A stretch of 64,000 nt of DNA, from the IMG/VR virus record IMGVR_UViG_3300037466_002257; one strand, 5' to 3'. The notes beneath the pieces were generated by a model. That model was not told where the DNA came from. It was given only the letters and a program-made list of their open reading frames with translations, and did no database searches. Positions 29,677 to 62,148 of this stretch are shown one piece after another. Numbering within the stretch: position 1 is the first letter of the stretch; the number at the start of each line of letters is the position of its first letter. The position numbers were made by a program, and so were the translations under genes. This stretch comes from an uncultured virus (IMG/VR IMGVR_UViG_3300037466_002257) (taxonomy: Duplodnaviria > Heunggongvirae > Uroviricota > Caudoviricetes).

Positions 29677-29691
29677 TTCGGAAGTTCCTTT

Positions 29692-32860: not shown

Positions 32861-33111
32861 TGCGAAGTTCCTTTCTTGTCGAGTTGCTCGAAGAATTTGC
32901 CGGTCAGCGCCCGGCCGTGCCGCACGTCCACTTCGACGGCGTAGTAACCCATGCGAAGCGGCTGCAGCGGCTTCAGCGACACCGTGGGCACGAAGCCCGC
33001 CTGCATCGCCTGCACCGCCCAGTAGCCGAGCTGGCGCTCGATGTGCCTGCGGATTTTCTCGACATGCTCGAAGTTGTCGGCGTCGAAGTTGGGGACGATC
33101 TCGTTGCTCAT
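32857..33111 (-). CDS. Hypothetical protein
   Basis: 84 aa, coupled by 4-nt overlaps. Confidence 0.6.
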   Translation of the reverse strand: MSNEIVPNFDADNFEHVEKIRRHIERQLGYWAVQAMQAGFVPTVSLKPLQPLRMGYYAVEVDVRHGRALTGKFFEQLDKKGTSQ

Positions 33112-35620: not shown

Positions 35621-35636
35621 TTGAAAGTTCCTTTCT

Positions 35637-36572: not shown

Positions 36573-36587
36573 TCTGGAAAGTTCCTT

Positions 36588-36791
36588 TCAATTGTTGTTG
36601 ACCGGGTGTCCGTAATGCCACTTGGAGCAGAAGCGGCACTTGTATGCTTTCATGAAGCTGCCTGTCCGCAGCATCCGGTGCGGACGGTAGGCAGCGGCCT
36701 CCGCTGCTGCCTCCGTCTCGAACTGCTGTTTGCCGTCACAGGAGCGAGCCTTAGGCGGCTTGCCCCTGATCCGCTTTCGCGGCTTGCCCAC
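36588..36791 (-). CDS. Small basic zinc-binding protein
   Basis: C..K..F...AYKCRFCSKWH. Confidence 0.6.
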   Translation of the reverse strand: MGKPRKRIRGKPPKARSCDGKQQFETEAAAEAAAYRPHRMLRTGSFMKAYKCRFCSKWHYGHPVNNN

Positions 36792-36805
36792 GAAAAGTTC
36801 CTTTC

Positions 36806-36967
36806 TTAGGGGTGATATCGGAAATACGCCCTGACAAAGGGCTCGACGACGGCAATGACCAGCGACAGCACCGCGCAGGCAAGCGAGGCGGCTCGCCCAT
36901 TCTTCTGCGAGAGGTGGGGCGCGATGAAGATCATTGTGCCCAGCAGGTAGAGTTCGGAGAGCTTCAT
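36806..36967 (-). CDS. Small membrane protein
   Basis: 53 aa, two hydrophobic stretches, ATGA overlap with polA. Confidence 0.5.
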   Translation of the reverse strand: MKLSELYLLGTMIFIAPHLSQKNGRAASLACAVLSLVIAVVEPFVRAYFRYHP

Positions 36968-41703: not shown

Positions 41704-42713
41704 TTTTTCCTTTCTTCTTCAAGGAGAAGGTACAGCCCCTCTCTCAGTTTCTCCCTGGAACGATCGGTCATCGCCGGAGGAATCCGGTCGGCCGAGAACA
41801 GCTTGCGCTTGAACGCCGAGGGCGCAAGGATTTCCGGCACCAGCAAGGCGCGGATCGCGACGACGCGGGCGCGGTCGCTGATGGCGAACGCCTGCGACAC
41901 CTCGATAGCCTCCTGAATGGTCTTCAGGCGGTGCTCGTTGACGCGCTGCGCGACGTGCAGGTGGCTGATGGCCGCCTGCAGCTCCGGCAGATGCTTGCCG
42001 TTGGCGAGCACGCGCAGCGCCTGCAGCGCCATGTCCACGCCGTCGAAGTCCTGCACCATGTCCTTGTGCGACCACGCAACGGAGCGCAACTTGGCAAGCA
42101 GGTCGTAGTCGCAGCCGTTGAAGGGCACGCCGCGCGTGATGCGCATCAGGTCCTGCACCATGCCGCTGACCGGCAGGTCCCATTGGTCGCCCTCGACGAT
42201 GGGCAGGCCGTCGCGCACGCCGATCTCGTGGCCCTCTTCGGTCACCACGTAGAAGTTGTCCTCGTCATCGACGATCTCCTGCACGGGGCAGGCGAGCGAG
42301 ATCACGAAGGCCGCTTCGATGGACAGGCGGGCACCGACGTACTCATCGACTTGCGGAAAGCCCTCGGGTGCGGTGAACCAATACAGGCGCTCGCCCTGCG
42401 TCACCTTCGGCAGGCAGTACGACAGGGCGCGGTAGCCGTGGTGGCTGCAGACCTTGTAGGGCGCGTGGCGGATGGTGCGCATCACGTCCACCCACATTTC
42501 GTAGACCTTGTCGGGGTTGACGAAGGGCGGGCGCGATTGCAGGTACTGCGCGACCGGTGCGCCGTGCAGCATCACGTCGGAGCGCAGCGGCGGCACCTGC
42601 CACACGAGGTCGGTGTGCTCAATCGTCCCGCCCAAAAGTTCCTTCTGCGTGACGCCCGCCAGAGCCAGCGCCCGGATGACGGGCTTGATGAGCGAGACGG
42701 TGAGCTGGCTCAT
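41700..42713 (-). CDS. Hypothetical protein, 337 aa
   Basis: Coupled overlaps at both ends; no motif recognised. Confidence 0.75.
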   Translation of the reverse strand: MSQLTVSLIKPVIRALALAGVTQKELLGGTIEHTDLVWQVPPLRSDVMLHGAPVAQYLQSRPPFVNPDKVYEMWVDVMRTIRHAPYKVCSHHGYRALSYCLPKVTQGERLYWFTAPEGFPQVDEYVGARLSIEAAFVISLACPVQEIVDDEDNFYVVTEEGHEIGVRDGLPIVEGDQWDLPVSGMVQDLMRITRGVPFNGCDYDLLAKLRSVAWSHKDMVQDFDGVDMALQALRVLANGKHLPELQAAISHLHVAQRVNEHRLKTIQEAIEVSQAFAISDRARVVAIRALLVPEILAPSAFKRKLFSADRIPPAMTDRSREKLREGLYLLLEEERKK

Positions 42714-44384: not shown

Positions 44385-44396
44385 GAAGGTCCTTTC

Positions 44397-44426
44397 AAAA
44401 AGGGACCCTCGTTTCCGAGGGTCCCT
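44397..44426 (-). terminator. Intrinsic terminator after putative SSB
   Basis: minus strand AGGGACCCTCG-GAAA-CGAGGGTCCC-TTTTT. Confidence 0.85.
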
Positions 44427-45361: not shown

Positions 45362-45389
45362 ATTATCTAAAATACGGAAATTCTGTCAA
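45362..45389 (-). promoter_or_regulatory. Sigma70-type promoter
   Basis: TTGACA-16-GATAAT; -35 contains the primase stop codon; CCGTATT/AATACGG inverted repeat over -10. Confidence 0.7.
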
Positions 45390-48387: not shown

Positions 48388-48903
48388 TCAGACGGTTTCT
48401 TCATTCGTGTTGTAGTGCTCGGCGAACTTCTTCGCCGTGCTGATGTAGTGCGCTCCCTCGACGAGGGGGTCGTTCAGACCACGCGCCGTGTTGATGTGGA
48501 ACGTCACGCCCAGCTTGCGGGGGCCGCCCGAGTCGCGCCAGTTCACGGGCGTCCAGCGCACCTCGCTCACGCCGGAGACCCAAAAGAAAACGTCCAGACC
48601 TTCGGGTCTGGACGGCTTCTGGCCGATGGTGAAGCGCTGGCCGCGTGCACGCTCGAAGGTGAGCTGCAGGCCGCCAGCGAGGGCGGCCTGCACGTCGGCA
48701 AGCCGGATGGTGTCGATGACCTCGGGGCGCCCGTCCTTCACGCAGAAGACGACGAAGGCGCTGTCGGGGCTGGCAAGCAGCCGCGTGATGTGGTGGAAGG
48801 AGAAGTAGCGCTCCCGCTCGGCTTCGGGGAGCAGGCGGGCCGCATGATTGGCCCACCGGTATTCAAAAGAAGGAAAGCGCTCGGCAGTTGTTGTTTCGCT
48901 CAT
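48388..48903 (-). CDS. Hypothetical protein
   Basis: 171 aa between promoter and primase. Confidence 0.65.
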   Translation of the reverse strand: MSETTTAERFPSFEYRWANHAARLLPEAERERYFSFHHITRLLASPDSAFVVFCVKDGRPEVIDTIRLADVQAALAGGLQLTFERARGQRFTIGQKPSRPEGLDVFFWVSGVSEVRWTPVNWRDSGGPRKLGVTFHINTARGLNDPLVEGAHYISTAKKFAEHYNTNEETV

Positions 48904-48952: not shown

Positions 48953-48982
48953 ATTGTCGAGGACGTAGGAGAAGTCTGTCAA
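48953..48982 (-). promoter_or_regulatory. Sigma70-type promoter
   Basis: TTGACA-18-GACAAT; GCTCAACA box downstream. Confidence 0.6.
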
Positions 48983-50437: not shown

Positions 50438-50807
50438 GGGCGATTCGTTTGAGTCCTGATGCGTGGAGGGTGAGAAGCAGCGGGCTGCTGCGCATCATCA
50501 TCTCGGGTGAGCGCGCCAGCACGCGGCAGAAGTCCGGCAGTGTGAGGATCGAGGCGAGGTGCTCAATCGTGCGGCTGCCGATGTAGTAGTGCTGCGCCGA
50601 GGTCAACATGTACGCGATGTTCGCCTCGCGGTACACGCGCGGCTCGGGCGGCGTGTCGCAGTTGAGCGTGAGGAAGGCGACGTTGAACGCACCCGCACGG
50701 CACTCCTTGGCGAAGAACGCGATGCCTGCGCCCTCGCTCTGCCAGGCCATCGGATCGCGCACCCAGTACGGATGCTCGATGGCCCGCTTGAATTGTTCCC
50801 AGTTCAA
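50406..50807 (-). CDS. Hypothetical protein
   Basis: 133 aa, SD GAAAGGAG, TTG start. Confidence 0.55.
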   Translation of the reverse strand: MNWEQFKRAIEHPYWVRDPMAWQSEGAGIAFFAKECRAGAFNVAFLTLNCDTPPEPRVYREANIAYMLTSAQHYYIGSRTIEHLASILTLPDFCRVLARSPEMMMRSSPLLLTLHASGLKRIAHELQLRRAAR

Positions 50808-51025
50808 TCGCTGCTCCTTTCTGTCCTGACAGGACGTGGCAAATTCTCGTATTCGCGCTCCATCAGCGCGATGGCTGTCTTCAAGGCTCGGAACTCCGCG
50901 AGGTCCCAGTCCGTCTTGTACTGCGCAAGGCGCTGCCCGAGGAAGTCGCGGCGGCGCGTGAGCGCCTTGATCTCGCGCTTGAGCACCTTCGCAGGGCTGT
51001 ATGCCTTGTCTGCACTGTGCGGCAT
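50804..51025 (-). CDS. Hypothetical protein
   Basis: 73 aa, SD inside AAAG-N3-CTTT. Confidence 0.55.
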   Translation of the reverse strand: MPHSADKAYSPAKVLKREIKALTRRRDFLGQRLAQYKTDWDLAEFRALKTAIALMEREYENLPRPVRTERSSD

Positions 51026-52660: not shown

Positions 52661-52691
52661 GTTGAAAGTTCCTTTCGTTGGTTGCTGTGAG

Positions 52692-52919
52692 TCAGGAGAG
52701 AGGGTTGGGGTCGTCTTCTTCGTTCAGCCGCCAGAACGGGGTCGTCCTGACTTCCTCCAGTCGCCGGTCGCAGGCTCGCTGCTGCGAGACGGACATCGGC
52801 ACGGCGGCCGGGCGCTCGGCGGTGAAGATGTGGCCCTCGCCCTTGCACCCGGGGCAAGGCTCAGTGGCTCCGACCCTGCGGCTTGCGCCGCCGCAGTCGG
52901 GGCAGACACGTCTGAACAT
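52692..52919 (-). CDS. Small zinc-finger protein
   Basis: CPDCGG...CPGCKGEG. Confidence 0.55.
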   Translation of the reverse strand: MFRRVCPDCGGASRRVGATEPCPGCKGEGHIFTAERPAAVPMSVSQQRACDRRLEEVRTTPFWRLNEEDDPNPLS

Positions 52920-52957
52920 GGTGGAAAGCTCCTTTCTGGCCGTGTGGCCGTAGCTCG

Positions 52958-52987
52958 ACTATACGTGGACTTCGGAAAATCTGTCAA
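52958..52987 (-). promoter_or_regulatory. Sigma70-type promoter for parB-like unit
   Basis: TTGACA-18-TATAGT; -35 contains upstream stop codon. Confidence 0.7.
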
Positions 52988-53226
52988 CCGGGCGGTAACT
53001 TGTAGTTGCCGTCGTACCGTGGCCGCAGCGCGATCAGCTTCTCGGCCCGCTCGATCAAGCCCTTGTACTGAGGGTAGTGACGCAGCATGTGCGTCGTCAC
53101 GATCAGGCAGTCGGACAGGCGCACGCCGTACAGCATCGCAAGGTGGTCGTGCGAGACGAAGTGCCTTTGCCCGTCGTTCTGGCTGACGACGTAGCCGGGG
53201 TACAAAGCGTACTTCGGCTCGCTCAT
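52984..53226 (-). CDS. Hypothetical protein
   Basis: 80 aa PGYVVSQNDGQRHF...LRPRYDGNY. Confidence 0.65.
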   Translation of the reverse strand: MSEPKYALYPGYVVSQNDGQRHFVSHDHLAMLYGVRLSDCLIVTTHMLRHYPQYKGLIERAEKLIALRPRYDGNYKLPPG

Positions 53227-53576
53227 GCTGACACCGCGATGACGTAGATGTGAGCATGATCGCCGTTCGGCTCGAAGATCGAGCACACGTAGTTCGCCGC
53301 CTCGGGGATCGGCGAGCCGTCGCGGAAGCCCGCCACCTTGATCTTCATCGGCGGCGCGGGCTCCATCGGCTCCTCGACGTACAGCAGCACGCGCGAGGAG
53401 CCTCTGAAGCGCGGCCCGTACTCGGGCTGGCCGGTGAGCACGCGCCCTCGCGGGTGCACTTCGAGCACGACACCGCCGCCCATGACGGCGCTGATGTCGT
53501 GCGCGATCACGACCTTCTTGGGCACGTTGAAGCGGGCAGGCGTGCCGCCGCTGTCGAGGATGGTGATGTCGCTCAT
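53223..53576 (-). CDS. Hypothetical protein
   Basis: 117 aa, coupled overlaps. Confidence 0.6.
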   Translation of the reverse strand: MSDITILDSGGTPARFNVPKKVVIAHDISAVMGGGVVLEVHPRGRVLTGQPEYGPRFRGSSRVLLYVEEPMEPAPPMKIKVAGFRDGSPIPEAANYVCSIFEPNGDHAHIYVIAVSA

Positions 53577-53782
53577 GTCTGCTTCCTTTCATCTTCCTCG
53601 CCTCGCTCGGTCATGATCGTGTCGATCACCAGCTCGGCGTTCTTCAGTTGCGCAAGGGCGAGCGAGAGCTGCGGGTCGTTGCGCGCCGACTCGGGGTAGT
53701 AGTCTTCGAGCGCGGTCTTGATGCTGTACTTGTCGCGCCAGTAGCTCCACATGCGCGGCTCAACGTCGGTCGGTCGGCTCAT
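53573..53782 (-). CDS. Hypothetical protein
   Basis: 69 aa, coupled overlaps. Confidence 0.55.
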   Translation of the reverse strand: MSRPTDVEPRMWSYWRDKYSIKTALEDYYPESARNDPQLSLALAQLKNAELVIDTIMTERGEEDERKQT

Positions 53783-54059
53783 CCCGTGGCCCTCCTTCCT
53801 CGCACTTCTTCGATGGCGGCAAATTCCCGCAGCGTGCGGTTCAACAACTGCAGCTCGTGAACGAGCCGCTCGTGCTGCTCGTACTGGGCGATCCACAGTA
53901 CCTCTTCGGGTGTTGCCTGACGCGCCCAAAGGAACACGCCACGCCCGTCCTTGCGGTAGATGCGCACGCTACCGTCAGCGTATGCACCTTCGTGTGGTCG
54001 ATCCCAGCCGCAGGTCGCCGGATCGAAAGTCATATCGGTGTTGCTCATCCCGTGGCCCT
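53777..54059. repeat. 17-bp direct repeat GCTCATCCCGTGGCCCT flanking one gene
   Basis: Exact copies at 53777-53793 and 54043-54059. Confidence 0.9.
53779..54048 (-). CDS. Hypothetical protein
   Basis: 89 aa between the direct repeats. Confidence 0.6.
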   Translation of the reverse strand: MSNTDMTFDPATCGWDRPHEGAYADGSVRIYRKDGRGVFLWARQATPEEVLWIAQYEQHERLVHELQLLNRTLREFAAIEEVRGRRATG

Positions 54060-55445
54060 TCCCAGCGAGTACGCAACACGCGTCACATGGTCACGCTGCT
54101 CCCATGCCCGCAGGTTCTCGGCGATGCGCTTGAAGAGGGCTCGCACCGGCCGCGTGTCCACGCTTTGGCCGAGGAGCTGGTGCGCAGCGGTGGCCGACAG
54201 GTCGCCCAGGCACGCAGCCGGGAAGCCCTTGATGCGGGCATGCTCCTGCGGCGTGAGCAAGCGCAGCCACTCGGGCTGCGTCGGGTGCTGCACCTTCGGC
54301 TCGGTCGAGCGGTTCTTCATGTAGTCCTTGCCGATGGTGCCCACCTTGACGGTGTCCTCGTTCACGATCTGCATGCGAAAGCCCTTGCCCGCTTCCTTGT
54401 CGCGAATCTCCTTCGCCTTCAGACCTTCCATCTTGGACCACGTCAGCTTGCTCTGGTCGGTCTCCAGATAGTCGCCCAACTTCGGCCTGCGCTTGAGCTT
54501 GGGCTCGAGATTGGACAGGTCCATCGGGATGCCGTGCGTCGCGGCCACGAGGAACCAGCGCTTGCGCTCCTCCAGCGAGCCGAAGTCCCACGAGTTCAAA
54601 GTGACTTCGTGCACGTCGTAGCCCATGTCGCGGAACATCTGGCGCATGAGCAGCGCGCTCACCGTGTTCGAGTACGGCACGACGCACTCGACGACGGCCA
54701 CGGCCGGATTGAACTTGTTCACCAGCATCAGGTAGGGCACGACGAGGTGCCCGACCTCGGGGTGCTCCTCGGCGCAGTCGATGGCGTTCTTGGTGCGCCC
54801 GCTGATCGAGGCGCCGCTGCACGGGATGCCCGTGACGAACACGTCCACCTTCGGCAGCTCCTTCATGGCTTCCTCGTCCTGCACCAGCTCCTGCATGGGC
54901 GCGGCGATGAGCCGGGTGTTGCTGGTGACGACGGGGTTGAACTGCGCCGCGTGGTCCAGCAGGTCGCCGTCGATCTCGATGGCGGCCACCAGCTCGCTCT
55001 TGACGCCCGCATCGAGCATGCCCGCATGCGCCGCGTTGTCCATCACGCCGCCGCCGAAGCACAGCGCCGCCACCGCAAGGGCGGTGCACAGGCCCTTCGC
55101 CAGGCGGTTCTTGCGGGCGTGCTGCTTCTCGGCCGACGACAGGCGCTCGATGCGGATCGCACCCTCGATCATGCGCACCTTGACGGCCGGCTCGTTCGCC
55201 AGCTTGCCGAGGACGGCGTTGTCATTGATGTCGATGATGGGGATGGTCTTGTCGCCCTTCGTCTTGCCGGAGACGATGCGCTTGCCGTCTTCGGCCAGCG
55301 TGAGCAGCAACACGCCCTGCTTGTCGTCGTAGTTCGCGTCGTAGCGCTTGCCGCGCTCGAAGCCGTACTCGGCGAGCTGCATGCTCTCGAACCAGAGGCG
55401 GGCGTTGCCGCGATGCTGACCGATGTGCTTGACTTGGTAGTCCAT
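54045..55445 (-). CDS. DNA (cytosine-5)-methyltransferase with N-terminal extension
   Basis: LCFGGG (motif I variant), GIPC catalytic motif, VECV, ERKRW, LLTPQEHARIKGFP, GQSV. Confidence 0.85.
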   Translation of the reverse strand: MDYQVKHIGQHRGNARLWFESMQLAEYGFERGKRYDANYDDKQGVLLLTLAEDGKRIVSGKTKGDKTIPIIDINDNAVLGKLANEPAVKVRMIEGAIRIERLSSAEKQHARKNRLAKGLCTALAVAALCFGGGVMDNAAHAGMLDAGVKSELVAAIEIDGDLLDHAAQFNPVVTSNTRLIAAPMQELVQDEEAMKELPKVDVFVTGIPCSGASISGRTKNAIDCAEEHPEVGHLVVPYLMLVNKFNPAVAVVECVVPYSNTVSALLMRQMFRDMGYDVHEVTLNSWDFGSLEERKRWFLVAATHGIPMDLSNLEPKLKRRPKLGDYLETDQSKLTWSKMEGLKAKEIRDKEAGKGFRMQIVNEDTVKVGTIGKDYMKNRSTEPKVQHPTQPEWLRLLTPQEHARIKGFPAACLGDLSATAAHQLLGQSVDTRPVRALFKRIAENLRAWEQRDHVTRVAYSLGRATG

Positions 55446-55472
55446 GAAGTTCCTTTCTGGCCGTGAGGCCGT

Positions 55473-55727
55473 TCAGTTGGTGATGGTGGGTTGCGCGCTG
55501 AGCGTCAGCTCGACTTCCTTGTCTTCGTCCAGGTCGATGCCCGCCTTCACGGCGAGGTTAATCACCTCCTGCCAGTCGAGCGTGACGTGGCGGCCCGTCT
55601 GCTTGCTGCGCACCGCGCAGGCGCCGCCGACAGGGTGCAGGACCTCGTAGGCGTTGCCTGTTTCCGGGTCACGCGCACTGCCTCCGATGGAGGCGAGGAG
55701 GAAATACTTCTTGCTGGTGAGTTTCAT
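55473..55727 (-). CDS. Hypothetical protein
   Basis: 84 aa, SD AGAAAGGA. Confidence 0.65.
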   Translation of the reverse strand: MKLTSKKYFLLASIGGSARDPETGNAYEVLHPVGGACAVRSKQTGRHVTLDWQEVINLAVKAGIDLDEDKEVELTLSAQPTITN

Positions 55728-55754
55728 GGGTTCCTTTCTGCGCGTTTCAGCGCG

Positions 55755-56366
55755 TTAGTCGAGTGCGTACTTCACCGCGTTGTCGATGACCTTCTCGAAC
55801 GACGACGCGGTCCACGTCGTTCCAGAGCTGAGCCGCAGCGACCACTCACCCGGCTGGTGGTGCGTGATCGTGAGGGACGGTTGCTTGCTCGCCTCCTCCA
55901 GCATCCGGTACAGGCCCGCAAGGCGGGACGCATCCTTGCCGATGTCCTGATGCTCGGCGAGCGTCTGCTCGAACGCCTTGCGCATGAAGTCCACGCATTG
56001 CTGCTGGCTGAACTTGATGTGCAGCACGCACTTGTCGGCAGGCGCAAGCACCATCGGCACGACTTCGAGGTCGTCCTTCGTGCGGCCCACGTCGCGGGCC
56101 TTCACGTAGTCGTCGCCGCCGAGGTCTTCGAGCGTCGGGCCGGTGTAGCTGCGCTCGTGGATGCCGCGTGCCCACGCCACGCGGGCGTTGTCGGCGCCCT
56201 TGTACGTGGCGAAGAGGCGCACGGTGCCCGTCATCCCGCTGTCGTTGCCGGTGTTCTGCAGGTCTGCCGTCGGCGTCCAGTGGCTGTAGCCACGCCCGTT
56301 CTCGAACTCGGGCATGAGCTGGCCCGTCGCCTTGTGGCGCAGTGCGAAGTATGAAAATTCACTCAT
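55755..56366 (-). CDS. Hypothetical protein
   Basis: 203 aa from ATG 56366. Confidence 0.6.
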   Translation of the reverse strand: MSEFSYFALRHKATGQLMPEFENGRGYSHWTPTADLQNTGNDSGMTGTVRLFATYKGADNARVAWARGIHERSYTGPTLEDLGGDDYVKARDVGRTKDDLEVVPMVLAPADKCVLHIKFSQQQCVDFMRKAFEQTLAEHQDIGKDASRLAGLYRMLEEASKQPSLTITHHQPGEWSLRLSSGTTWTASSFEKVIDNAVKYALD

Positions 56367-56530
56367 ACCTTCTCCTCGACCTTGTGGATGACGATGCTCT
56401 CGTCCTTGTAGCCCTGCCTGCGCATCTCCTGCAGGCACAGGTTCTTCGCGTGGTCCTCGTTGTCGGCGACGCACTCGAATTGCTCGCTCATGGCGGGCCA
56501 ACGCATGAAGGTGACGATGTAGCGCTTCAT
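56363..56530 (-). CDS. Hypothetical protein (below ORF-track cutoff)
   Basis: 55 aa MKRYIVTFMRW...; ATGA overlaps at both ends fill the gap. Confidence 0.55.
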   Translation of the reverse strand: MKRYIVTFMRWPAMSEQFECVADNEDHAKNLCLQEMRRQGYKDESIVIHKVEEKV

Positions 56531-57078
56531 TGCTTCGGGTCCTCCACGTCGTCGAACGCCCTCGCAGGCGCCGTCGGGGCGGCCGGTGCCGCAAGTGCTT
56601 GGAAGTTCGCCTGCGGCAGGTTGCCGCCGAGCGCCTCGCGGAACTGCTCGACCATCGACTTGCGCTTGATCGCGCGCTCGGCTTCGAGGACCTTCTTTTC
56701 CAGCGCCTGCTCGTGAGCGAGGATTTGCTGGTGGCGGGCGGTCTCGACCTTGCCGACGTACCAGCGGTAGTCATAGTCGCTGTCGGGGTCGATCTGCGGC
56801 TCGTCGTGCACGGCCGCCACGACGGCCAGCGACAGGCCGTGCCGCGTGTCCACCACGACGATGTCGTCCGGCACGAGCTGCTTCGCGTCTTCCTTCAGCG
56901 CCTTGAAGGTGTAGGCGAGCGTGTTGCCCGGCCCCGGCTTGATGATCCTGTGGGGCGTGATGCGCGCCCGCACGCTGCCGCCGCCGTCGTCCTCGTCGAT
57001 CTCACGCCTGCGCAGGAAGTGCACGGCGATGGTGGTGATGTCGTCGCGCAGCAGCGCGGCAATCTGTTTCGTCTTCAT
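56527..57078 (-). CDS. Hypothetical protein
   Basis: 183 aa, YTFK...DDIVVV...YRWYVGKV; strong SD. Confidence 0.7.
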   Translation of the reverse strand: MKTKQIAALLRDDITTIAVHFLRRREIDEDDGGGSVRARITPHRIIKPGPGNTLAYTFKALKEDAKQLVPDDIVVVDTRHGLSLAVVAAVHDEPQIDPDSDYDYRWYVGKVETARHQQILAHEQALEKKVLEAERAIKRKSMVEQFREALGGNLPQANFQALAAPAAPTAPARAFDDVEDPKQ

Positions 57079-57108
57079 TGGAAGTTCCTTTCTTGGGTTG
57101 GTGGGTCT

Positions 57109-57354
57109 TCAGAACTGCCTGTCGTGGCAGTAAACGCATCGAGCCATCTCGGCCTCGGTGATCTGGAAAATGTGCTTGCCCTTGCGGACCAGCCTGCTCG
57201 CCGCGTGCAGCTTCACGCCGGTCCAGCGCCGAAAGGCGATGGCCGACTTGTCGCTGAGCGCGGGCCAGTCGGCGACCAGCTCCTTGTGGATCAGGTCGCC
57301 GTTCTTGCAGTCTTCGGGTTTGCGCTCAGGAGGTTGCACGGTCCTCCTCCGCAA
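57109..57354 (-). CDS. Hypothetical protein
   Basis: About 80 aa, start uncertain. Confidence 0.45.
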   Translation of the reverse strand: MRRRTVQPPERKPEDCKNGDLIHKELVADWPALSDKSAIAFRRWTGVKLHAASRLVRKGKHIFQITEAEMARCVYCHDRQF

Positions 57355-57601
57355 GCTGGTCGTTCAGTTGCCGCACGACCTGGACCAACACCCACGGGTC
57401 GGGGTCTACCCGGTGGTAGCCGGTGTATCCCATCTGCGTGAGGCAGCCCAGTATCTGCAGTTGGCTGATGATCGCGTTCGGCGTCCGGCCGTGCAGTCGG
57501 CACATCTCTTCGAGCTGCATGCCCTGCACAAACCGATCGTGCAGCAGCCGCTTCTCGTCGAGTGACCACGTCTTCCCTGCGTTGAAGAGGACGCGGCTCA
57601 C
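57326..57601 (-). CDS. Small HTH-like protein
   Basis: GKTWSLDE...GMQLEEMCRLHGRTPNAIISQL. Confidence 0.6.
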   Translation of the reverse strand: MSRVLFNAGKTWSLDEKRLLHDRFVQGMQLEEMCRLHGRTPNAIISQLQILGCLTQMGYTGYHRVDPDPWVLVQVVRQLNDQLAEEDRATS

Positions 57602-58029
57602 AGGTCGCGCTCCCGATCCACATCGGTCACGCTGTAGGTGCCGTGCAGCACCTCGCGCAGGTAGATCGTGCCCATGTGGTGCCCCTCGTGCGGCGGCAGC
57701 TCGCGATTGGCCTTCAGCCAGGCGAAGGCCGTGTCGAGGAACTGCTCGCCGTAGCCGTAGCTCCTGCCGCTCGTGTGCACCAGCTCGCCGTTCTCGAAGA
57801 TGCGCACGGTGTGGTACGTGTTGCCCGCGCTGCGCTGGAACCAGCGCCTGCCCTCGATGTGGTACTTCGGGATGCGGGCCACGGCCAGCAGCGGTTCGAG
57901 CTGCTCGGCAAGCGCCTTGCAGTTCTCGGCCGAGCCGTGCAGCCACTTCTCGCCAGCAAAGCGCAAGAGGCTCACGGCCTCTTGCAGCAGGTGTGAAGGC
58001 ACTTCCACCTTCGGTCTGAGTTGGGTCAT
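57598..58029 (-). CDS. Hypothetical protein
   Basis: 143 aa, RRWFQ...GNTYH...YGYGEQF. Confidence 0.65.
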   Translation of the reverse strand: MTQLRPKVEVPSHLLQEAVSLLRFAGEKWLHGSAENCKALAEQLEPLLAVARIPKYHIEGRRWFQRSAGNTYHTVRIFENGELVHTSGRSYGYGEQFLDTAFAWLKANRELPPHEGHHMGTIYLREVLHGTYSVTDVDRERDL

Positions 58030-58415
58030 CGCTTCCACCTTTCGTTTCGGAATCGTTGTTGGTCCTTGTGCACGACGACGATCTCCAGCTCGATGTCCTT
58101 CGTGCCCTGCGACATCTCGTAGCCGTAGATGGCCCAGCGCTTGTAGCGCTCGACGAAGTCGGCCAGCCCGAGGGCTTTGGCGTCGGCGCTGCCGGGGCGC
58201 ACGAGCTTGCCCCGCCAGTAGTAGCCCATGCTGGCCTCGCCGTAGCACATGGGAGCGTCGCTGTCGGGGCGAAAGCCCTTGGGCTCGTTCTCGTAGCTCA
58301 CGAGCGTGGACCAGCAGCAGACCCTGCCGGGGTTGGCCGGGTCCTCCAGCGGGAACAGGGCAAGGCCCTGCTTGCCATAGTCGCGCACGACGACGTGTTC
58401 GGTGAACTTCTTCAT
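58026..58415 (-). CDS. Hypothetical protein
   Basis: 129 aa, LALFP...GEASMGYY. Confidence 0.6.
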   Translation of the reverse strand: MKKFTEHVVVRDYGKQGLALFPLEDPANPGRVCCWSTLVSYENEPKGFRPDSDAPMCYGEASMGYYWRGKLVRPGSADAKALGLADFVERYKRWAIYGYEMSQGTKDIELEIVVVHKDQQRFRNERWKR

Positions 58416-58588
58416 GGTCGGTTCTTCCTTTCTTGCGCAGCCGCCCGCAGGCGCTCGTGGGCCTCCACGAGCTGCCCCGAGCCGACGCATGTGTGGACGC
58501 CGTTCTTGTGCTGCTTGGGCCGCAAGCCGTTCTTCGTGAGTTCGACCTGCTTGCCGCACCACGCGCACTTAACCGTCTTGGCGGCCAT
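58412..58588 (-). CDS. Small zinc-binding protein
   Basis: CAWCG...H...CVGSG. Confidence 0.5.
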   Translation of the reverse strand: MAAKTVKCAWCGKQVELTKNGLRPKQHKNGVHTCVGSGQLVEAHERLRAAAQERKNRP

Positions 58589-59001
58589 CACAGCCACTTG
58601 TGTTCGAGGGCGTAGCCGCCGTCGGAATCCGGCTGGCCGTTGCGCGTGCCGTGCGGCTCGGGCGTACCGTTCGGCCACATGGCTTGTCCGAGCCGGTAGA
58701 CCAGCTCGAAGCCCATGTCCATCCCGGCGCCCGACATCACAAGGCCCTCCTCGTAGGACTTCCACGACTGGCCGCTGCCGCCGTAGCGCGTCACCGTCTT
58801 GCGCTTGGCGATGCCGATAGCCTCGACCAGGCCGTCCAACTGGAAGGGCCGCACCTTCTTGCAGTGCTCGTCGTACACCAGCGCGATCAGGCTGATGCGG
58901 CGCGACATGTTGCCGCGCGAGACGTGGCGCACGATGGTGTAGATCGTGTCGTTCGGCTTGAGCACCTCGTGCAGGCGCTTCATGGCTTCGTCTTTCTTCA
59001 T
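58588..59001 (-). CDS. Conserved phage-type hypothetical protein
   Basis: IYTIVRHVSR.NMSR...GAGMDMGF. Confidence 0.7.
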   Translation of the reverse strand: MKKDEAMKRLHEVLKPNDTIYTIVRHVSRGNMSRRISLIALVYDEHCKKVRPFQLDGLVEAIGIAKRKTVTRYGGSGQSWKSYEEGLVMSGAGMDMGFELVYRLGQAMWPNGTPEPHGTRNGQPDSDGGYALEHKWL

Positions 59002-59031
59002 GTCAAAGATCCTTTCTGGCCGTGTGGCCGT

Positions 59032-59451
59032 TCACTCGTCGAAATAGAACCAGCCTGCGTGCTGGTAGTGGTAGCACTCGCCGACCTTCTTCGCCTCCTC
59101 GGTGAGCAAGTCACCCAGGCTCGGGTTGCCGACGCGCAGCGGCTCGCGGTCCCAAAAGCCCACGCCGTGCCCCTGCCGCGTCAGCCAGAAGTCGTGACCG
59201 AAGGCGGCCTCGGCGCTGCCAGCGTCGGGGTGCGTGCCGTAGCCGTGCTCGAAGCGCTCCATCGCCTTCGTGAAGAGGCCGCCCGCGTCCTCGCACTGGC
59301 GCATGAACTTCTCGCAGGCTTCGCGGGCCGTGGCCTTCTGTTTGTTGTCGCACCTTGGGTTGGTGCCCTCCTCGCAGTCGGCCCACAGCGCCGCGATGAT
59401 GTAGTGGCGGGTGACGATGTCCACCTGCTCATCCCATGTGCTCTTGCTCAT
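59032..59451 (-). CDS. Conserved phage-type hypothetical protein
   Basis: GHDFWLTRQGHGVGFWDR. Confidence 0.7.
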   Translation of the reverse strand: MSKSTWDEQVDIVTRHYIIAALWADCEEGTNPRCDNKQKATAREACEKFMRQCEDAGGLFTKAMERFEHGYGTHPDAGSAEAAFGHDFWLTRQGHGVGFWDREPLRVGNPSLGDLLTEEAKKVGECYHYQHAGWFYFDE

Positions 59452-59453
59452 GG

Positions 59454-59750
59454 TCAGGCGCTCAGCGTGAAAGTGATCTCGCCGCCGTCGTGCTTCTCGG
59501 CCACGAGGTGCGGTGCACCCTTGTCCACGCACACCCACGTCATCTGACCGGGACCGCTCCAGCCGCCGACGTAGTGGCCGTCCCACTTCATCTTGCGCAT
59601 CAGCGCCTCGCACGCCTTCGCGTGCCGCGCATCGTCGTTCGAGCCGTAGTCGTAAGGAACGGTCGCCTCGTTGCCGTCGTGGTCGCTCGCCTTCATGCGA
59701 GCGCCCCGGACGTTGCCCGGTGAGAGGTACTTCGTTGTGATGCTCTTCAT
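59454..59750 (-). CDS. Conserved phage-type hypothetical protein
   Basis: ITTKYLSPGNVRGARMKA. Confidence 0.7.
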   Translation of the reverse strand: MKSITTKYLSPGNVRGARMKASDHDGNEATVPYDYGSNDDARHAKACEALMRKMKWDGHYVGGWSGPGQMTWVCVDKGAPHLVAEKHDGGEITFTLSA

Positions 59751-59772
59751 GCAAAGCTCCTTTCTGTCACGC

Positions 59773-60231
59773 TCAGGTGACGTTGACGTGGATGAACCGG
59801 TGTTTCGCAAGCACCCGCCCCAGCTCCAGCGACGGCTCGGGCGGCAGCAGAAAGATGGCGTGCTGCGCGTGGTCCACGAGGAACACGTCGAGCGCGGCCA
59901 GGTACTTCTGCGGGTACTCGATCTGCCGGTCGAAGCAGACGATGCCCACCGGCTTGAGCGGCATCGGCGCGTTCATGAACTTGACGCTCGTGAGGTACGC
60001 GCCCTTCCAGCCGCCGTCCCACCAGCGGTGCATGTTCGCGGCCGGGCCGATCACGAGCGCTTGCGGCGTCTCGCCTGCCGCCTGCTGGTAGTTGACCTCC
60101 TCGGTCATGTACGCGGCCATGATGCGGTAGACGTAGGCCTGCGCAGCGTTCGACACGTTCAGGCACCAGCGGGCCGGGCCGGTGCCGCGCAGCGCTTGCA
60201 CGAGCTTCTGTTCGGTCGGATAGAGGTTCAC
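59773..60231 (-). CDS. Hypothetical protein
   Basis: 152 aa, GTGA overlap. Confidence 0.6.
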   Translation of the reverse strand: MNLYPTEQKLVQALRGTGPARWCLNVSNAAQAYVYRIMAAYMTEEVNYQQAAGETPQALVIGPAANMHRWWDGGWKGAYLTSVKFMNAPMPLKPVGIVCFDRQIEYPQKYLAALDVFLVDHAQHAIFLLPPEPSLELGRVLAKHRFIHVNVT

Positions 60232-60596
60232 AGCAGGGCCTCCATGCGCATCGCGTTGAACGCGTTGATCTGGTGGCGCAAGGCGGTGACCTCGTCGGGG
60301 CGCATCGGGAACTCGCTCGCGGGGCCGTGCGCGATGCTCGCGAAGCGGATCGCGGCGTCCTGCACCGCCGCGAAGATGGCCCGCTCCGGATCGGGGCCGA
60401 AGCGCAACCAGCGGATCACGTAGCCGTCGTGGCCGACGCGCCGCACGGCCGTCAGGTTGCGCTCGGCGAGCCAGGTGATGATGCCGGGCGGCAGGGCGCC
60501 GTGCAGCAGGCCCACGTCCCAGGTGTCGCGGCCTTCCCATTCGCCGACGGAGAAGCGGCATTGCGGGAAGGCCTGCATGAGGCGGTAGAGGATCAT
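60228..60596 (-). CDS. Hypothetical protein
   Basis: 122 aa, SD GAAAGGA. Confidence 0.6.
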   Translation of the reverse strand: MILYRLMQAFPQCRFSVGEWEGRDTWDVGLLHGALPPGIITWLAERNLTAVRRVGHDGYVIRWLRFGPDPERAIFAAVQDAAIRFASIAHGPASEFPMRPDEVTALRHQINAFNAMRMEALL

Positions 60597-60823
60597 TGCG
60601 GAAGTTCCTTTCGCAGGTGGGGGTTGCCGTCCAGCCATTCGTTCAGCGCCTGCACGCGCTTCTCGGACATGTGCAGGTCGAACTTCTGGCGCTCGATGGA
60701 CGCCTTCGTGAGCGCGATCAGCGCCTCCTCGTTCGCGAGCATCTCCGCAAGGAGTTGCTTGAACGACTTGCGCGGGTGCAGCCTTTCGAGCCAGCGGTCG
60801 ATGAAGGTGGTCTTGAAGAACAT
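60593..60823 (-). CDS. Hypothetical protein
   Basis: 76 aa coiled-coil-like, SD AGAAAGGA. Confidence 0.6.
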   Translation of the reverse strand: MFFKTTFIDRWLERLHPRKSFKQLLAEMLANEEALIALTKASIERQKFDLHMSEKRVQALNEWLDGNPHLRKELPQ

Positions 60824-60873
60824 TGTTCTTGTTCCTTTCTGGCGTGACGCCGTTGATGCCCTCGAATGGGCGC

Positions 60874-61131
60874 TTACAGTTTCTTCAGGTCGTACTCGAC
60901 TTCGTCGAGCAGTTCTTTCGTGCTGTGCAGCGTGTCGTCGCGCACGGCCGTCAGGATCACCGTGCGCTCGTCCAGCCTGCCGTCGCTGCCGGGGTGCGAG
61001 GCGCGGGCGATGTACCAGCCGTTGCTGCGCAGGTACTCGACCACGTCGTCGCGCTTCTCGCGCGGCAGCGTCACCGTGATCTGCTCGACCAGCTTGGCCT
61101 TGACGGAGATGGGGAAAGTGCCTTTCGGCAT
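60874..61131 (-). CDS. Hypothetical protein
   Basis: 85 aa, SD AGAAAGGA. Confidence 0.6.
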   Translation of the reverse strand: MPKGTFPISVKAKLVEQITVTLPREKRDDVVEYLRSNGWYIARASHPGSDGRLDERTVILTAVRDDTLHSTKELLDEVEYDLKKL

Positions 61132-61168
61132 GGAGAGTCCTTTCTGGCCTTGCGGCCGGATCGCGATT

Positions 61169-61426
61169 CTAGTGCAGCACGAGCGGGCACATCGCAAGCG
61201 CGGTGTACGCGTTCAGGTAGCTCTCGACTTCCTCCTCCGACGGCGCTTCCTGCTTCCACGCTTCGAGTTGCGCCTCGAAGGCGGTGCACAGGTCGCCGTG
61301 GAGGAAAAGCGACGCCTCGGCAACCTTGTCCACGATCTCGGCGCCCGTGCAGGCACCGCCGACCCACACGACCACGAAGCGCTCGTTGTCGAACAGCATG
61401 GACAGGGACATCTCGGCGGTGTTCAT
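61169..61426 (-). CDS. DUF3567 (BTH_I0359)-like protein
   Basis: MLFDNERFVVV...GAEIVDK...LFLHG...PSEEEVESYL...PLVLH matches the family pattern as I recall it. Confidence 0.7.
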   Translation of the reverse strand: MNTAEMSLSMLFDNERFVVVWVGGACTGAEIVDKVAEASLFLHGDLCTAFEAQLEAWKQEAPSEEEVESYLNAYTALAMCPLVLH

Positions 61427-61432
61427 GCCCTC

Positions 61433-61460
61433 ATTATTGCTGAGCAGGGGCATCCGTCAA
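61433..61460 (-). promoter_or_regulatory. Sigma70-type promoter, probably leaderless
   Basis: TTGACG-16-AATAAT, ATG 6 nt downstream, GCTCAGCA abutting -10. Confidence 0.6.
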
Positions 61461-62120: not shown

Positions 62121-62148
62121 GGAAGTTCCTTTCGTTGGTGGGTTGGAC

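Follow-up and report, generated by a model that had tools for sequence, protein, structure and literature searches.

A hairpin set flush against the Shine-Dalgarno sequence recurs before early genes of an uncultured phage and may favour translation initiation

In ompA and papA of E. coli, and in the aprE leader, STAB-SD and SP82 polypurine elements of Bacillus, a small stem-loop combined with a strong polypurine Shine-Dalgarno sequence heads the message; what defines these stabilisers is that they sit at the RNA 5' end and have been measured to lengthen half-life. In RiboJ-type engineered insulators, a hairpin is placed immediately 5' of the ribosome-binding site (RBS) and expression becomes independent of upstream sequence; such synthetic parts are combined with a self-cleaving ribozyme. 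The element described here lies in a 64,000-nt stretch of DNA from an uncultured soil virus of the Caudoviricetes (the window) and joins the same two components. However, most of its copies lie between cistrons, and its conserved feature is the zero spacing to the Shine-Dalgarno sequence; for one site, a position at about +3 of a transcript is predicted, as in those stabilisers. The placement of its hairpin is that of the RiboJ-type parts, but this is a natural element of much smaller size that lacks a ribozyme.

Short repeats at the RBS of many genes are likewise found in cluster K mycobacteriophages, as the start-associated sequences (SAS) and extended SAS treated in the sections consulted of Pope et al. 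(2011, PMC3203893). According to those sections, the SAS shares with the present element its confinement to the non-structural genome arm, the inclusion of a Shine-Dalgarno core and an extension beyond what rRNA pairing explains; about half of the SAS copies have an inverted repeat just upstream, as here, and the function of the SAS is given as unknown. The SAS is a fixed 13-bp sequence, GGGATAGGAGCCC, whereas the present stem has 4-5 bp, varies while staying paired and directly abuts the Shine-Dalgarno sequence. In the extended SAS, the repeats measure 17 bp and are imperfect; the authors, in the same sections, counted their variation against RNA pairing and favoured a DNA-binding protein. 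The PeSLs (promoter-early stem-loops) of T4-type phages, as presented in the consulted part of Arbiol et al. (2010, PMC2839356), are also repeated intergenic cassettes of stem-loop and Shine-Dalgarno sequence which, like the present element, flank small ORFans of the plastic early region and are possible substrates of modular shuffling. They measure about 100 bp and include, besides a strong sigma-70 promoter, a stem-loop acting as terminator, whereas the present unit spans about 25 nt, has a promoter-like sequence at one of eight sites and has no stem with a U-tract. Our literature search found no paper describing a flush hairpin-AGAAAGGA element, and no matching Rfam family was found.

The initial annotation had listed hairpins before seven genes, each ending exactly at AGAAAGGA. 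All seven were found in the sequence, on the minus strand, but the count was incomplete, since an eighth (50823-50835) precedes a gene starting with TTG at 50807. That annotation did not identify AGAAAGGA as a Shine-Dalgarno sequence. The sites and one putative promoter are as follows:

61138-61157, minus strand: site 1, GGCC-gcaa-GGCC (61146-61157) with a GNRA loop, flush with AGAAAGGA (61138-61145); ATG at 61131.
60833-60851, minus strand: site 2, GGCG-tca-CGCC (60841-60851), flush with AGAAAGGA (60833-60840); ATG at 60823.
59758-59781, minus strand: site 3, GTCAC-ctgagc-GTGAC (59766-59781), whose loop contains the TGA stop of the upstream gene, flush with AGAAAGGA (59758-59765); ATG at 59750.
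59010-59029, minus strand: site 4, GGCC-acac-GGCC (59018-59029), starting 2 nt after the upstream TGA, flush with AGAAAGGA (59010-59017); ATG at 59001.
55732-55753, minus strand: site 5, GCGC-tgaaac-GCGC (55740-55753), starting 1 nt after the upstream TAA, flush with AGAAAGGA (55732-55739); ATG at 55727.
55451-55470, minus strand: site 6, GGCC-tcac-GGCC (55459-55470), flush with AGAAAGGA (55451-55458); ATG at 55445, of a DNA methyltransferase (466 aa).
52930-52949, minus strand: site 7, GGCC-acac-GGCC (52938-52949), flush with AGAAAGGA (52930-52937); ATG at 52919.
50815-50835, minus strand: site 8, GTCCT-gtc-AGGAC (50823-50835), within the 3' end of an upstream 73-codon ORF (51025-50804), flush with AGAAAGGA (50815-50822); TTG start at 50807.
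52958-52987, minus strand: putative sigma-70-like promoter TTGACA-18-TATAGT, matching 11 of 12 consensus positions (consensus only).

The -10 box of this putative promoter ends 8 nt upstream of hairpin 7, which, by consensus only, would therefore start at about +3 of the transcript.

Within the window, AGAAAGGA occurs 14 times, always on the minus strand and before a start codon, against 0.86 copies expected; at least 14 copies were reached in none of 100 shuffles. A stem was scored as flush when it was perfect, had at least 4 bp and a loop of 3-6 nt, and ended at offset 0 of AGAAAGGA. Such stems end at 1322 of 36,970 minus-strand positions (3.6%) and were present at 8 of the 14 copies (binomial P=6.6e-9 against this positional background), all of them among the ten copies located between 50.8 and 61.2 kb, in the early region. 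The position of the stem is fixed relative to the Shine-Dalgarno sequence only: the spacing between them is 0 nt in 8/8 stems, while the start codon follows AGAAAGGA by 4-10 nt and the stem by 12-18 nt, and the upstream stop codon lies anywhere from within the loop up to 22 nt away. Five distinct stem sequences, perfectly paired throughout, are found among the eight sites. In a model-fitted alignment, 30 of 30 cells were paired, both sides had changed in two of four pairs, and the observed score was reached by 0 of 500 shuffles; GGCC (four sites) and GCGC (one site) are self-complementary and hence also direct repeats, and only three stems, GTCAC/GTGAC, GGCG/CGCC and GTCCT/AGGAC, tell inverted from direct repeats. 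The flush hairpin at AGAAAGGA is real and not a product of chance.

Conservation extends past the stem. As had been noted, the triplet AAC precedes five of the stems (TAC and CAC precede two others, and TCC one); in three of these five cases its AA is supplied by the stop codon of the upstream gene. Also as noted, two copies, 52930-52951 and 59010-59031, are identical over 22 nt. The motif kept across sites (AC, stem, C-AGAAAGGA, A/G-CTT) exceeds what rRNA pairing requires.

Complementarity to the 3' tail of 16S rRNA marks AGAAAGGA as the Shine-Dalgarno sequence. The 16S gene end CCTCCTTTCT is complementary to it over its final 8 bases; in a Comamonadaceae genome that carries a relative of the phage helicase and may not be that of the host, AGAAAGGA is the reverse complement of the 8 nt that close the 16S gene just ahead of the spacer. 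Among the genomes sampled from the order to which this one belongs, 14 had a complete 16S 3' end, and 11 of these carried CCTCCTTTCT. The stem was part of the minimum-energy fold in native context at seven of the eight sites; at site 8, UCCU paired with the AGGA of the Shine-Dalgarno sequence and the hairpin did not form.

Sites that lack a flush stem, two of them with a near-flush variant, are the following:

41708-41729, minus strand: CTTC-tcctt-GAAG (41717-41729), then one A, then AGAAAGGA (41708-41715); ATG at 41703.
32869-32891, minus strand: TCGAG-caa-CTCGA (32879-32891), then CA, then AGAAAGGA (32869-32876); ATG at 32860, of an SbcD-like gene.
57086-57108, minus strand: A/C-rich leader agacccaccaaccca, then AGAAAGGAACTTCC; ATG at 57078.
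62121-62148, minus strand: gtccaacccaccaac, then GAAAGGAACTTCC; ATG at 62120.
52661-52687, minus strand: cagcaaccaac, then GAAAGGAACTTTCAAC; ATG at 52660, of a ParB-like gene.
58426-58433, minus strand: AGAAAGGA without a flush stem, inside the coding sequence of an upstream 58-codon gene; ATG at 58415.
35629-35636, minus strand: AGAAAGGA without a stem, directly abutted by the upstream TGA stop; ATG at 35620.
36799-36806, minus strand: AGAAAGGA without a stem, overlapped by a TAA and resembling the copy at 35629-35636.

By our own reading of the sequence, the 11 gene junctions between 50 and 62.5 kb that have a real untranslated gap comprise seven with a hairpin, three with an A/C-rich tract of the CCACCAAC type and one with a promoter-like leader. 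Hairpin and A/C-rich tract alike leave the flank unable to pair with the purine Shine-Dalgarno sequence.

Recurrence in IMG/VR is given in dereplicated clusters, restricted to those in which a start codon follows the motif at 3-11 nt and at least 20 codons are open. GGCC-N4-GGCC flush to AGAAAGGA was found in 50 clusters against 3 for the non-pairing CCGG-N4-GGCC, and GGGC-N4-GCCC in 28 against 7 for the non-pairing GGGC-N4-GGGC, so that pairing arms were 4- to 17-fold commoner than controls at RBS-like places; with a 1-nt spacer the flush count of 50 fell to 12. YNMG or GNRA loops made up 28/63 and 10/28 cluster-loop pairs in the hairpin sets versus 0/11 in the controls, with about 9% expected by chance. 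UNCG/YNMG and GNRA tetraloops are RNA-specific stabilisers. The earlier proposal of a selected RNA structure is thus supported by this excess, by the tetraloop enrichment and by the five stems that keep pairing and position. Of the roles suggested along with it, namely translational enhancer, RNA-binding-protein site and processing or stabilising element, any may apply. The unrelated phages that share the design range from 37 to 67% in GC content, and their stems reach 8 bp. Major head proteins accounted for 7 of 35 downstream proteins tested, and Microbacterium phages, among them the cultured phage Koji, carry the element ahead of their major capsid gene. At this capsid site L273 has the A/C-rich form instead of the hairpin, the same alternation as in the studied phage. 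The variant Shine-Dalgarno sequences of the capsid site, AGGAAGGAG, AGAGAGGAG and GGAAAGGAG, would in our reading all still pair with the same 16S tail through G-U pairs.

Closer relatives gave a different picture. In the nearest one compared (L128), whose methyltransferase is 61% identical, the hairpin is absent at the orthologous methyltransferase site and is thus dispensable there; relatives at 65-82% helicase identity also exist. In relatives at 40-54% helicase identity, flush stems numbered about 1-5 among 36-100 crude sites, near background and with no overall enrichment. Some of their stems abut shorter Shine-Dalgarno sequences (AAGGAG in L128), which do not fit a strict need to meet the rRNA 3' terminus.

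The reading that we favour, with somewhat less than even confidence, is that the hairpin is a cis-acting mRNA structure, an "RBS cap" lying 5' of the RBS, that would strengthen and insulate initiation; perhaps it would also protect the 5' end. A maximal Shine-Dalgarno sequence, AGAAAGGA, able to base-pair with the eight 3'-terminal nucleotides of a 16S rRNA whose tail reads ...CCUCCUUUCU-3', would be closed on its 5' side by a GC-rich stem-loop of 4-5 bp. As the last base of the stem adjoins the first Shine-Dalgarno base, the upstream flank would be prevented from pairing with the RBS. The stem could also pre-stack the purine tract, or stack end-on-end on the Shine-Dalgarno:anti-Shine-Dalgarno helix. 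Either insulation or stacking could give strong, upstream-independent initiation at the first gene of each translationally coupled block. When the 5' arm was broken in silico, the energy needed to open the RBS rose by about 1 kcal/mol at four of the eight sites. Several observations count against an RBS cap. The same break had no effect at the other four sites (with only 5 variants at six sites), predicted Shine-Dalgarno accessibility was equal at 8 hairpin and 6 other sites (mean paired probability about 0.38 in both), and covariation at the orthologous capsid site was modest (77 of 84 cells paired, one double change, three U-G cells). In standby-site models, moreover, structure directly 5' of the Shine-Dalgarno sequence can hinder 30S binding.

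It is possible, but on balance unlikely, that the stem-loop is instead a 5' mRNA stabiliser located within a few nt of an RNA 5' end. Such an end would come from a promoter or from endonucleolytic processing in the A/C-rich flank, and the stem-loop plus a ribosome parked on the Shine-Dalgarno sequence would block 5'-end-dependent decay (RppH/RNase E, or RNase J where present). The putative start of hairpin 7 at about +3 agrees with this, GC clamps with UNCG/GNRA loops would suit a nuclease-resistant cap, and the head proteins downstream, including that of Koji, point the same way, capsid genes normally ranking among the phage genes with the highest expression. Precedents named in the reference list of PMC3997798 are the ompA and papA 5' stem-loops, the aprE leader (a 5' stem-loop plus ribosome binding), STAB-SD, SP82 polypurine and hbs. 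However, a promoter-like sequence at the right distance was seen at only one of eight sites, and processing sites at the stems are hypothetical. Zero spacing is unneeded for a 5' cap, yet flush stems outnumber those with a 1-nt spacer; the alternative A/C-rich flank is no barrier to nucleases and a 4-bp stem only a weak one, and two of the eight stems overlap upstream coding sequence wholly or in part, so that translating ribosomes would melt them.

Improbable, in our estimate, is a role as operator, in which an RNA-binding protein of phage or host would recognise the stem plus the adjacent purine tract and switch early genes on or off jointly at translation, as with T4 RegA or gp43. The concentration of sites in the early region and the extended motif are consistent with it, and the T4 gp43 operator, in the part of PMC3014915 consulted, is a hairpin plus sequence overlapping the RBS. 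Yet stem sequence, stem length (4-5 bp, elsewhere up to 8) and the unrelated loops of 3-6 nt vary freely, leaving little for specific protein recognition; the same design occurs in unrelated phages, also before late capsid genes, and the 25 small genes scanned included no candidate RNA-binding protein (18 without a PHROG match, 6 matching only families of unknown function). We give the same low probability to a DNA-level linker, in which the main use of a 22-27 bp repeat (AC-stem-loop-AGAAAGGA-NCTT) would be as short homology for swapping gene blocks, with the hairpin as by-product or recombination target, much as in the T4-type PeSLs. The cassettes border groups of ORFans that overlap one another, two copies, taken in the initial annotation as possible recombination points, agree over 22 bases, the order of the methyltransferase and of the homologue of the gene at 59451 differs in L128, and PeSL-mediated shuffling is documented in the consulted part of PMC2839356. 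But recombination needs identity, whereas the five different stems stay paired and not identical; tetraloop enrichment and U-G pairs point to RNA, and no breakpoint mapped to a cassette, the metagenome contigs compared giving the same arrangement only. That the stems are chance or recent-duplication artefacts without selected structure is very unlikely: four of the eight are identical GGCC stems, three of these share at least 20 bases and may be recent copies, and GGCC and GCGC are self-complementary, but the positional P value, the perfect pairing of the three non-self-complementary stems and the IMG/VR excess of hairpin-forming arms all argue against it.

For the RBS cap, the recurrence of the design in many unrelated phages suggests that a flush hairpin is probably a general way to make a start signal strong and independent of its surroundings.

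The initial annotation had reported seven minus-strand hairpins, each ending exactly at AGAAAGGA, and all of them were found where it had placed them. Besides these, an eighth flush stem that it had not listed, GTCCT-gtc-AGGAC, lies at 50823-50835, and two further stems stand 1 and 2 nt off the motif (41717-41729 and 32879-32891). The flush hairpins are numbered as follows.

61146-61157, minus strand: flush hairpin, site 1
60841-60851, minus strand: flush hairpin, site 2
59766-59781, minus strand: flush hairpin, site 3
59018-59029, minus strand: flush hairpin, site 4
55740-55753, minus strand: flush hairpin, site 5
55459-55470, minus strand: flush hairpin, site 6
52938-52949, minus strand: flush hairpin, site 7
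50823-50835, minus strand: flush hairpin, site 8

The motif AGAAAGGA occurs in 14 copies, on the minus strand only and each 4-10 nt 5' of a start codon; 0.86 copies are expected from shuffling, and 14 copies were attained in none of 100 shuffles. If any perfect helix of at least 4 bp with a loop of 3-6 nt is counted as a stem, 8 of the 14 copies are directly abutted by one (P=6.6e-9), compared to a background of 3.6% of minus-strand positions at which a stem ends. At offset -1 there are stems in 4 of the 14 copies, mostly inner registers of the flush stems, and the remaining offsets gave 0-2. The spacing between stem and motif is 0 throughout. At the eight flush sites the start codon follows the stem by 12-18 nt, and the upstream stop codon is located anywhere from within the loop to 22 nt away from the stem. 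The base 5' of the motif is C at all eight stem sites, A at all six other copies and T at none.

Since MAFFT failed to align the stems structurally, a covariance model was built on the four GGCC sites, which share the same geometry, and was then used to align the others; this model picked up all eight sites. In the resulting alignment, which is fitted to structure and misplaces one pair of site 2, 30 out of 30 cells are paired and both sides change in two of the four pairs. The pairing and covariation scores were attained by none of 500 shuffles, and, when read by hand, the fourth pair is also variable (G-C at site 2, A-U at site 3). The aligned copies are paralogues within one genome, four of them with GGCC, and as GGCC and GCGC each pair with themselves, the evidence for an inverted and against a direct repeat comes from the three remaining stems only. 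A methyltransferase or restriction site as the reason for GGCC and GCGC was rejected, as three stems are not palindromic tetramers. When four metagenome runs were compared, they yielded only identical low-depth fragments and foreign methyltransferase contigs, with no variation at the stems among the differences listed (162 further differences lie beyond these).

Judged from its sequence and position, AGAAAGGA is a Shine-Dalgarno sequence: it is complementary to the 16S tail, and 14/14 copies stand at the appropriate distance before a start codon. The 16S gene of a Comamonadaceae genome that also carries a relative of the phage helicase ends in GGATCACCTCCTTTCT, followed by spacer; among 14 sampled genomes of the same order in which the 16S 3' end is complete, 11 have CCTCCTTTCT there. 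Reversed and complemented, AGAAAGGA reads TCCTTTCT, with which the 16S gene ends in 11/14 sampled genomes, used here in place of the rRNA of the phage's own host. From these gene ends, AGAAAGGA would complement the last eight bases, provided that the mature rRNA ends in ...UCU-3', an end point known for Bacillus and mycobacteria. The shorter GAAAGGAACTTYC serves many other minus-strand genes. An extended ribosome-binding site, (A)GAAAGGAACTTYC, which is longer than rRNA pairing accounts for, was also observed at many minus-strand genes between 27000 and 64000, for example:

62121-62134, minus strand: extended ribosome-binding site
60597-60612, minus strand: extended ribosome-binding site
52661-52676, minus strand: extended ribosome-binding site
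36573-36590, minus strand: extended ribosome-binding site
35621-35636, minus strand: extended ribosome-binding site
29677-29692, minus strand: extended ribosome-binding site

The form AAAGGA(A/G)CTTT is also in use in the relatives L123, L128 and L129 and, as GAAAG is complementary to CTTTC, the Shine-Dalgarno sequence may lie within a weak self-hairpin.

The window holds most of a siphovirus-type phage genome with a GC content of ~65%. Structural genes occupy the plus strand to ~26 kb (head protease, major head protein, a tape measure protein of 1884 aa, tail fibre), and replication and early genes the minus strand from ~27 kb to the window end, with products including an SbcCD-like nuclease, DNA polymerase, primase, SNF2 helicase, a ParB-like protein and a cytosine methyltransferase. 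The nearest cultured phages are Vibrio SHOU24-like phages and Pseudomonas PMBT3/Lana, with protein identities of merely 26-31%; a Comamonadaceae chromosome carries a helicase 43% identical to that of the phage, and phage DNA was present in 11 DNA runs from soil and rhizosphere metagenomes and in no RNA run among those listed. In a PHROG scan of 25 small genes between 50 and 62.5 kb, 18 had no match, 6 hit nothing but families of unknown function, and the one left was weakly similar to a transcriptional regulator.

Genes of the window are grouped in blocks with overlapping members (ATGA, GTGA), and the first gene of a block is preceded by a true untranslated gap. When the junctions between 50 and 62.5 kb were read by eye, 11 such gaps were found, 7 with a hairpin, 3 with an A/C-rich tract and 1 with a promoter-like leader. 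The A/C-rich tract is of the CCACCAAC type and lies directly 5' of the Shine-Dalgarno sequence, and an insert of ~12 nt in the hairpin-less cassette, AAC joined to GAAAGGAACTT, gives the form with the hairpin. Two stems, those of sites 3 and 8, overlap the upstream coding sequence. Before hairpin 7 there is a near-consensus promoter, TTGACA-18-TATAGT (11/12 positions). With 8 nt between the end of its -10 box and the hairpin, the latter would begin at about +3 of the predicted transcript. Three sigma-70-like promoters of the window all begin with TTGACAGA:

52958-52987, minus strand: sigma-70-like promoter
45362-45389, minus strand: sigma-70-like promoter
48953-48982, minus strand: sigma-70-like promoter

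They resemble a promoter family belonging to the phage itself. Two of the three go on with (A/T)TTTCCG, and the promoter at 45389 has an 85-nt leader. Another promoter-like site on the minus strand, TTGACG-16-AATAAT, overlaps an inverted repeat, ATGCCC...GGGCAT (61426-61460), which includes a candidate ATG at 61426; the alternative start of that gene is at 61453. One terminator deserves a line of its own:

44386-44413, minus strand: intrinsic terminator, GGGACCCTCG-gaaa-CGAGGGTCCC-TTTTT

It runs directly into the GAAAGGACCTTC-ATG of the next gene, so that terminator and ribosome-binding site are fused. A further strong terminator is located at 48591-48614. At 50823-50835 and 41717-41729, an anti-Shine-Dalgarno-like UCCU or CUCCUU forms part of the stem or loop; in the minimum-energy fold at 50822, UCCU pairs with the Shine-Dalgarno AGGA instead of forming the mini-hairpin, and a two-state switch is therefore possible there.

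Close relatives were not obtained from megablast of 52800-61400 against GenBank phages, which gave no match, nor from a ParB query in IMG/VR, which found no relative. Helicase relatives at 65-82% identity exist; those compared here are 40-54% identical. The closest of them, L128 (helicase 54%, methyltransferase 61% identity), has TAAccactgAAAAGGAACTTTT without a stem at the orthologous methyltransferase start, and in three relatives the homologue of the gene at 50807 is preceded by true terminators. The 40-54% relatives use mostly AGGAG and have flush stems at about background numbers, with a few long ones standing out (L113, 7 bp; L125, 8 bp; L128, 8 bp). The stemless ortholog in L128 and these near-background numbers indicate that the hairpin set is, by sequence comparison, lineage-specific and not an ancient conserved site. 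The methyltransferase (54045-55445; 61% identical) and the homologue of the 59451 gene (59032-59451; 60%) occur in reversed order in L128, at these positions:

L128 2537-3886: counterpart of window 54045-55445
L128 5164-5595: counterpart of window 59032-59451

This reversal indicates block shuffling in the early region.

Searching IMG/VR for the pattern GGCC-N4-GGCC-AGAAAGGA yielded 112 loci, all of them unrelated to the window. Matches of this and of the control patterns were dereplicated into clusters, and those were retained in which a start codon 3-11 nt past the motif was followed by 20 or more open codons.

IMG/VR pattern matches before and after filtering (pattern; type; raw matches; clusters kept)
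GGCC-N4-GGCC flush; hairpin; 112; 50
CCGG-N4-GGCC flush; non-pairing arm; 13; 3
GGCC-N4-GGCC, 1-nt spacer; spacing; 30; 12
GGGC-N4-GCCC flush; hairpin, arm not self-complementary; 36; 28
GGGC-N4-GGGC flush; direct repeat; 17; 7

The contrast with the direct repeat is conservative, since several matches of that control are longer-loop hairpins. YNMG and GNRA tetraloops stabilise RNA, not DNA. They make up 28/63 (GGCC) and 10/28 (GGGC/GCCC) of the cluster-loop pairs in the flush hairpin sets, 6/12 in the 1-nt-spacer hairpins and 0/11 in the non-pairing and direct-repeat controls, with ~9% expected by chance. The 15 nt 5' of the stem in the GGCC set are 66% A+C, with A at -3 in 31 and G at -1 in only 2 of the 49 clusters, in agreement with the AAC and CCACCAAC flanks of the window. 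Proteins downstream were compared with PHROGs for 35 of the 50 cluster representatives, the omitted 15 being among the shortest; seven are major head proteins, others match head decoration, scaffold or methyltransferase families, and many have no match. GGCC-N4-GGCC-AGAAAGGA was absent from 401 bacterial genomes of one order, an absence that carries no weight because merely ~2 copies are expected at the IMG/VR rate. Across 4067 crude sites in 1.18 Mb of phage loci, the distance from stem 3' end to GGA core showed only a broad bump at 5-7 nt (67-71 vs about 40-50), which is too noisy to be of use. In six loci (L017, L027, L034, L036, L056 and L060; mostly ~41-43 kb, GC ~47%) each contig has two different flush modules of hairpin and ribosome-binding site, GGCC-N4-GGCC and either GTTGYG-atat-CRCAAC or a 7-bp version, and the orthologous site GTTGYG-atat-CRCAAC, flush with AGAAAGGAAATGG, displays a compensatory change across six loci. 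A separate set of ~22 loci (e.g. L005, L010, L012, L033 and L047; contigs of 23-52 kb) shares a conserved ...gaaccgtaaccgggg-GGCC-atat-GGCC-AGAAAGGA-tgccagcctagcgctgcgtaaggc; as a ribosome-binding site, the gaaccgtaaccgggg-GGCC-atat-GGCC stretch was ruled out, as no start codon follows it.

A capsid group from IMG/VR shares 73-85% identity with the capsids of cultured Microbacterium phages. One such phage, Koji, has ...accctcaacC-GGCC-ttcg-GGCC-AGAAAGGAG-tcagtcac-ATG after the scaffold stop, the ATG being that of the major capsid gene. From 40 loci, 28 distinct upstream regions of capsid homologues were readable, after 8 duplicates and 4 loci without a readable start had been dropped. A flush Watson-Crick stem (GGCC, GGCA/TGCC, GGCCC/GGGCC or GGCCCT/AGGGCC) is present in 20 of the 28, a GGCU/GGCC stem with a U-G pair in two and an A/C-rich tract instead of a stem in one; the other five lack a convincing flush stem (four have none, one an AT-only stem 1 nt off). 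Covariation at this site is modest, with 77/84 cells paired, one double change and three U-G cells.

Two described systems were compared with the window element. According to the excerpted text of PMC3203893, the SAS of cluster K mycobacteriophages is a conserved 13-bp asymmetric GGGATAGGAGCCC located 3-7 bp before start codons, and its authors consider RNA pairing unsupported for the 17-bp imperfect inverted repeats of the ESAS. The position before start codons is common to both, but the repeated core is AGAAAGGA in the window versus GGGATAGGAGCCC in the SAS, and the 4-5 bp stems of the window are paired (30/30 cells, two pairs changed on both sides), unlike the ESAS repeats. Given the different sequence and repeats that do not pair as RNA, the window element is not SAS/ESAS as those excerpts describe them. 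PeSL cassettes, in the excerpted text of PMC2839356, each contain a strong sigma-70-like promoter, and their stem-loop is a terminator or attenuator. In the window, a consensus scan places a promoter-like site next to just one of the eight hairpins, none of the 16 terminator-like sites in the scan is any of the eight stems, and no stem is followed by a T-run; with 7/8 sites devoid of a predicted promoter or terminator, the element does not appear to be a PeSL as portrayed in those excerpts. An intrinsic (rho-independent) terminator was likewise ruled out, as each stem is followed by AGAAAGGA rather than a U-tract, and the geometry, read from the sequence against the respective consensus, spoke against sigma-54 promoters, N4-type hairpin promoters and RNase III sites, which were therefore rejected. 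Rfam cmscan of 27000-64000 (E<=1) gave three weak matches, none in or near the sites. In its presumed working, the element comes closest to engineered hairpin insulators and to strong ribosome-binding sites combined with a 5' stem-loop. In a literature search that left most subscription journals uncovered, no published account was found of a hairpin flush with the Shine-Dalgarno sequence or stacking on its duplex; new here are the flush geometry, the predicted reach of Shine-Dalgarno pairing to the rRNA end, and how broadly the design recurs.

Four facts bear on function: the zero spacing to the Shine-Dalgarno sequence alone, a stem and loop free to vary under the pairing constraint, the stable RNA tetraloops, and the fact that an A/C-rich flank unable to pair can take the hairpin's place. 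One reading fits all four: the stem-loop would cap the mRNA just 5' of the ribosome-binding site and block pairing of the flank with that site. The main rival, a stem-loop acting as 5' mRNA stabiliser, is somewhat unlikely; it is favoured by strong precedent, by the promoter-proximal site 7 and by the association with capsid genes, but it leaves the zero spacing and the A/C-rich alternative unexplained. Such stabilisers lengthen mRNA half-life and sit at the 5' terminus of the RNA, a position that is predicted, from promoter consensus, at 1/8 sites. The cap and stabiliser roles could coexist. A protein operator is less likely, and so is a recombination linker, a use the initial annotation had suggested for swapping small genes.

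In the cap reading, the Shine-Dalgarno sequence would pair with a 16S tail ending in CCUCCUUUCU, and stacking needs the ...UCU-3' end. Because this pairing would reach the 3'-terminal nucleotide of the 16S rRNA, we propose that the closing G-C pair of the hairpin would form a coaxial stack with the end of the Shine-Dalgarno:anti-Shine-Dalgarno helix, as a nicked continuous helix. Such a stack would contribute roughly 2 kcal/mol by nearest-neighbour values. The flush stem may thus pre-order the purine tract, and a 12-nt insertion would make any ribosome-binding site maximal and context-proof. Stacking agrees with the 50 clusters of flush hairpins versus 12 with a 1-nt spacer, and with Shine-Dalgarno variants that still pair to the rRNA terminus via G-U. 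Support from folding models is weak: predicted accessibility of the Shine-Dalgarno sequence is equal with and without the stems, and breaking an arm in silico costs ~1 kcal/mol at only 4/8 sites. The full proposal, that the flush mini-hairpin is an undescribed, widespread class of translation-initiation element of phages and other mobile DNA across phyla that stacks coaxially, we regard as unlikely.

The element is simple, widespread and testable in cultured phages, its recurrence before the capsid genes of cultured Microbacterium phages making the idea directly testable. In present ribosome-binding-site models, structure upstream counts mainly as a cost. If true, a helix that stacks onto the Shine-Dalgarno duplex where the rRNA ends would be a new structural rule for such models in bacteria, and possibly a compact engineering tool for high-GC hosts. 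If the hairpin raises or insulates initiation, it would be a natural part of 12 nucleotides that makes gene expression portable across genomic contexts, which would help to explain how phages swap small genes without loss of expression.
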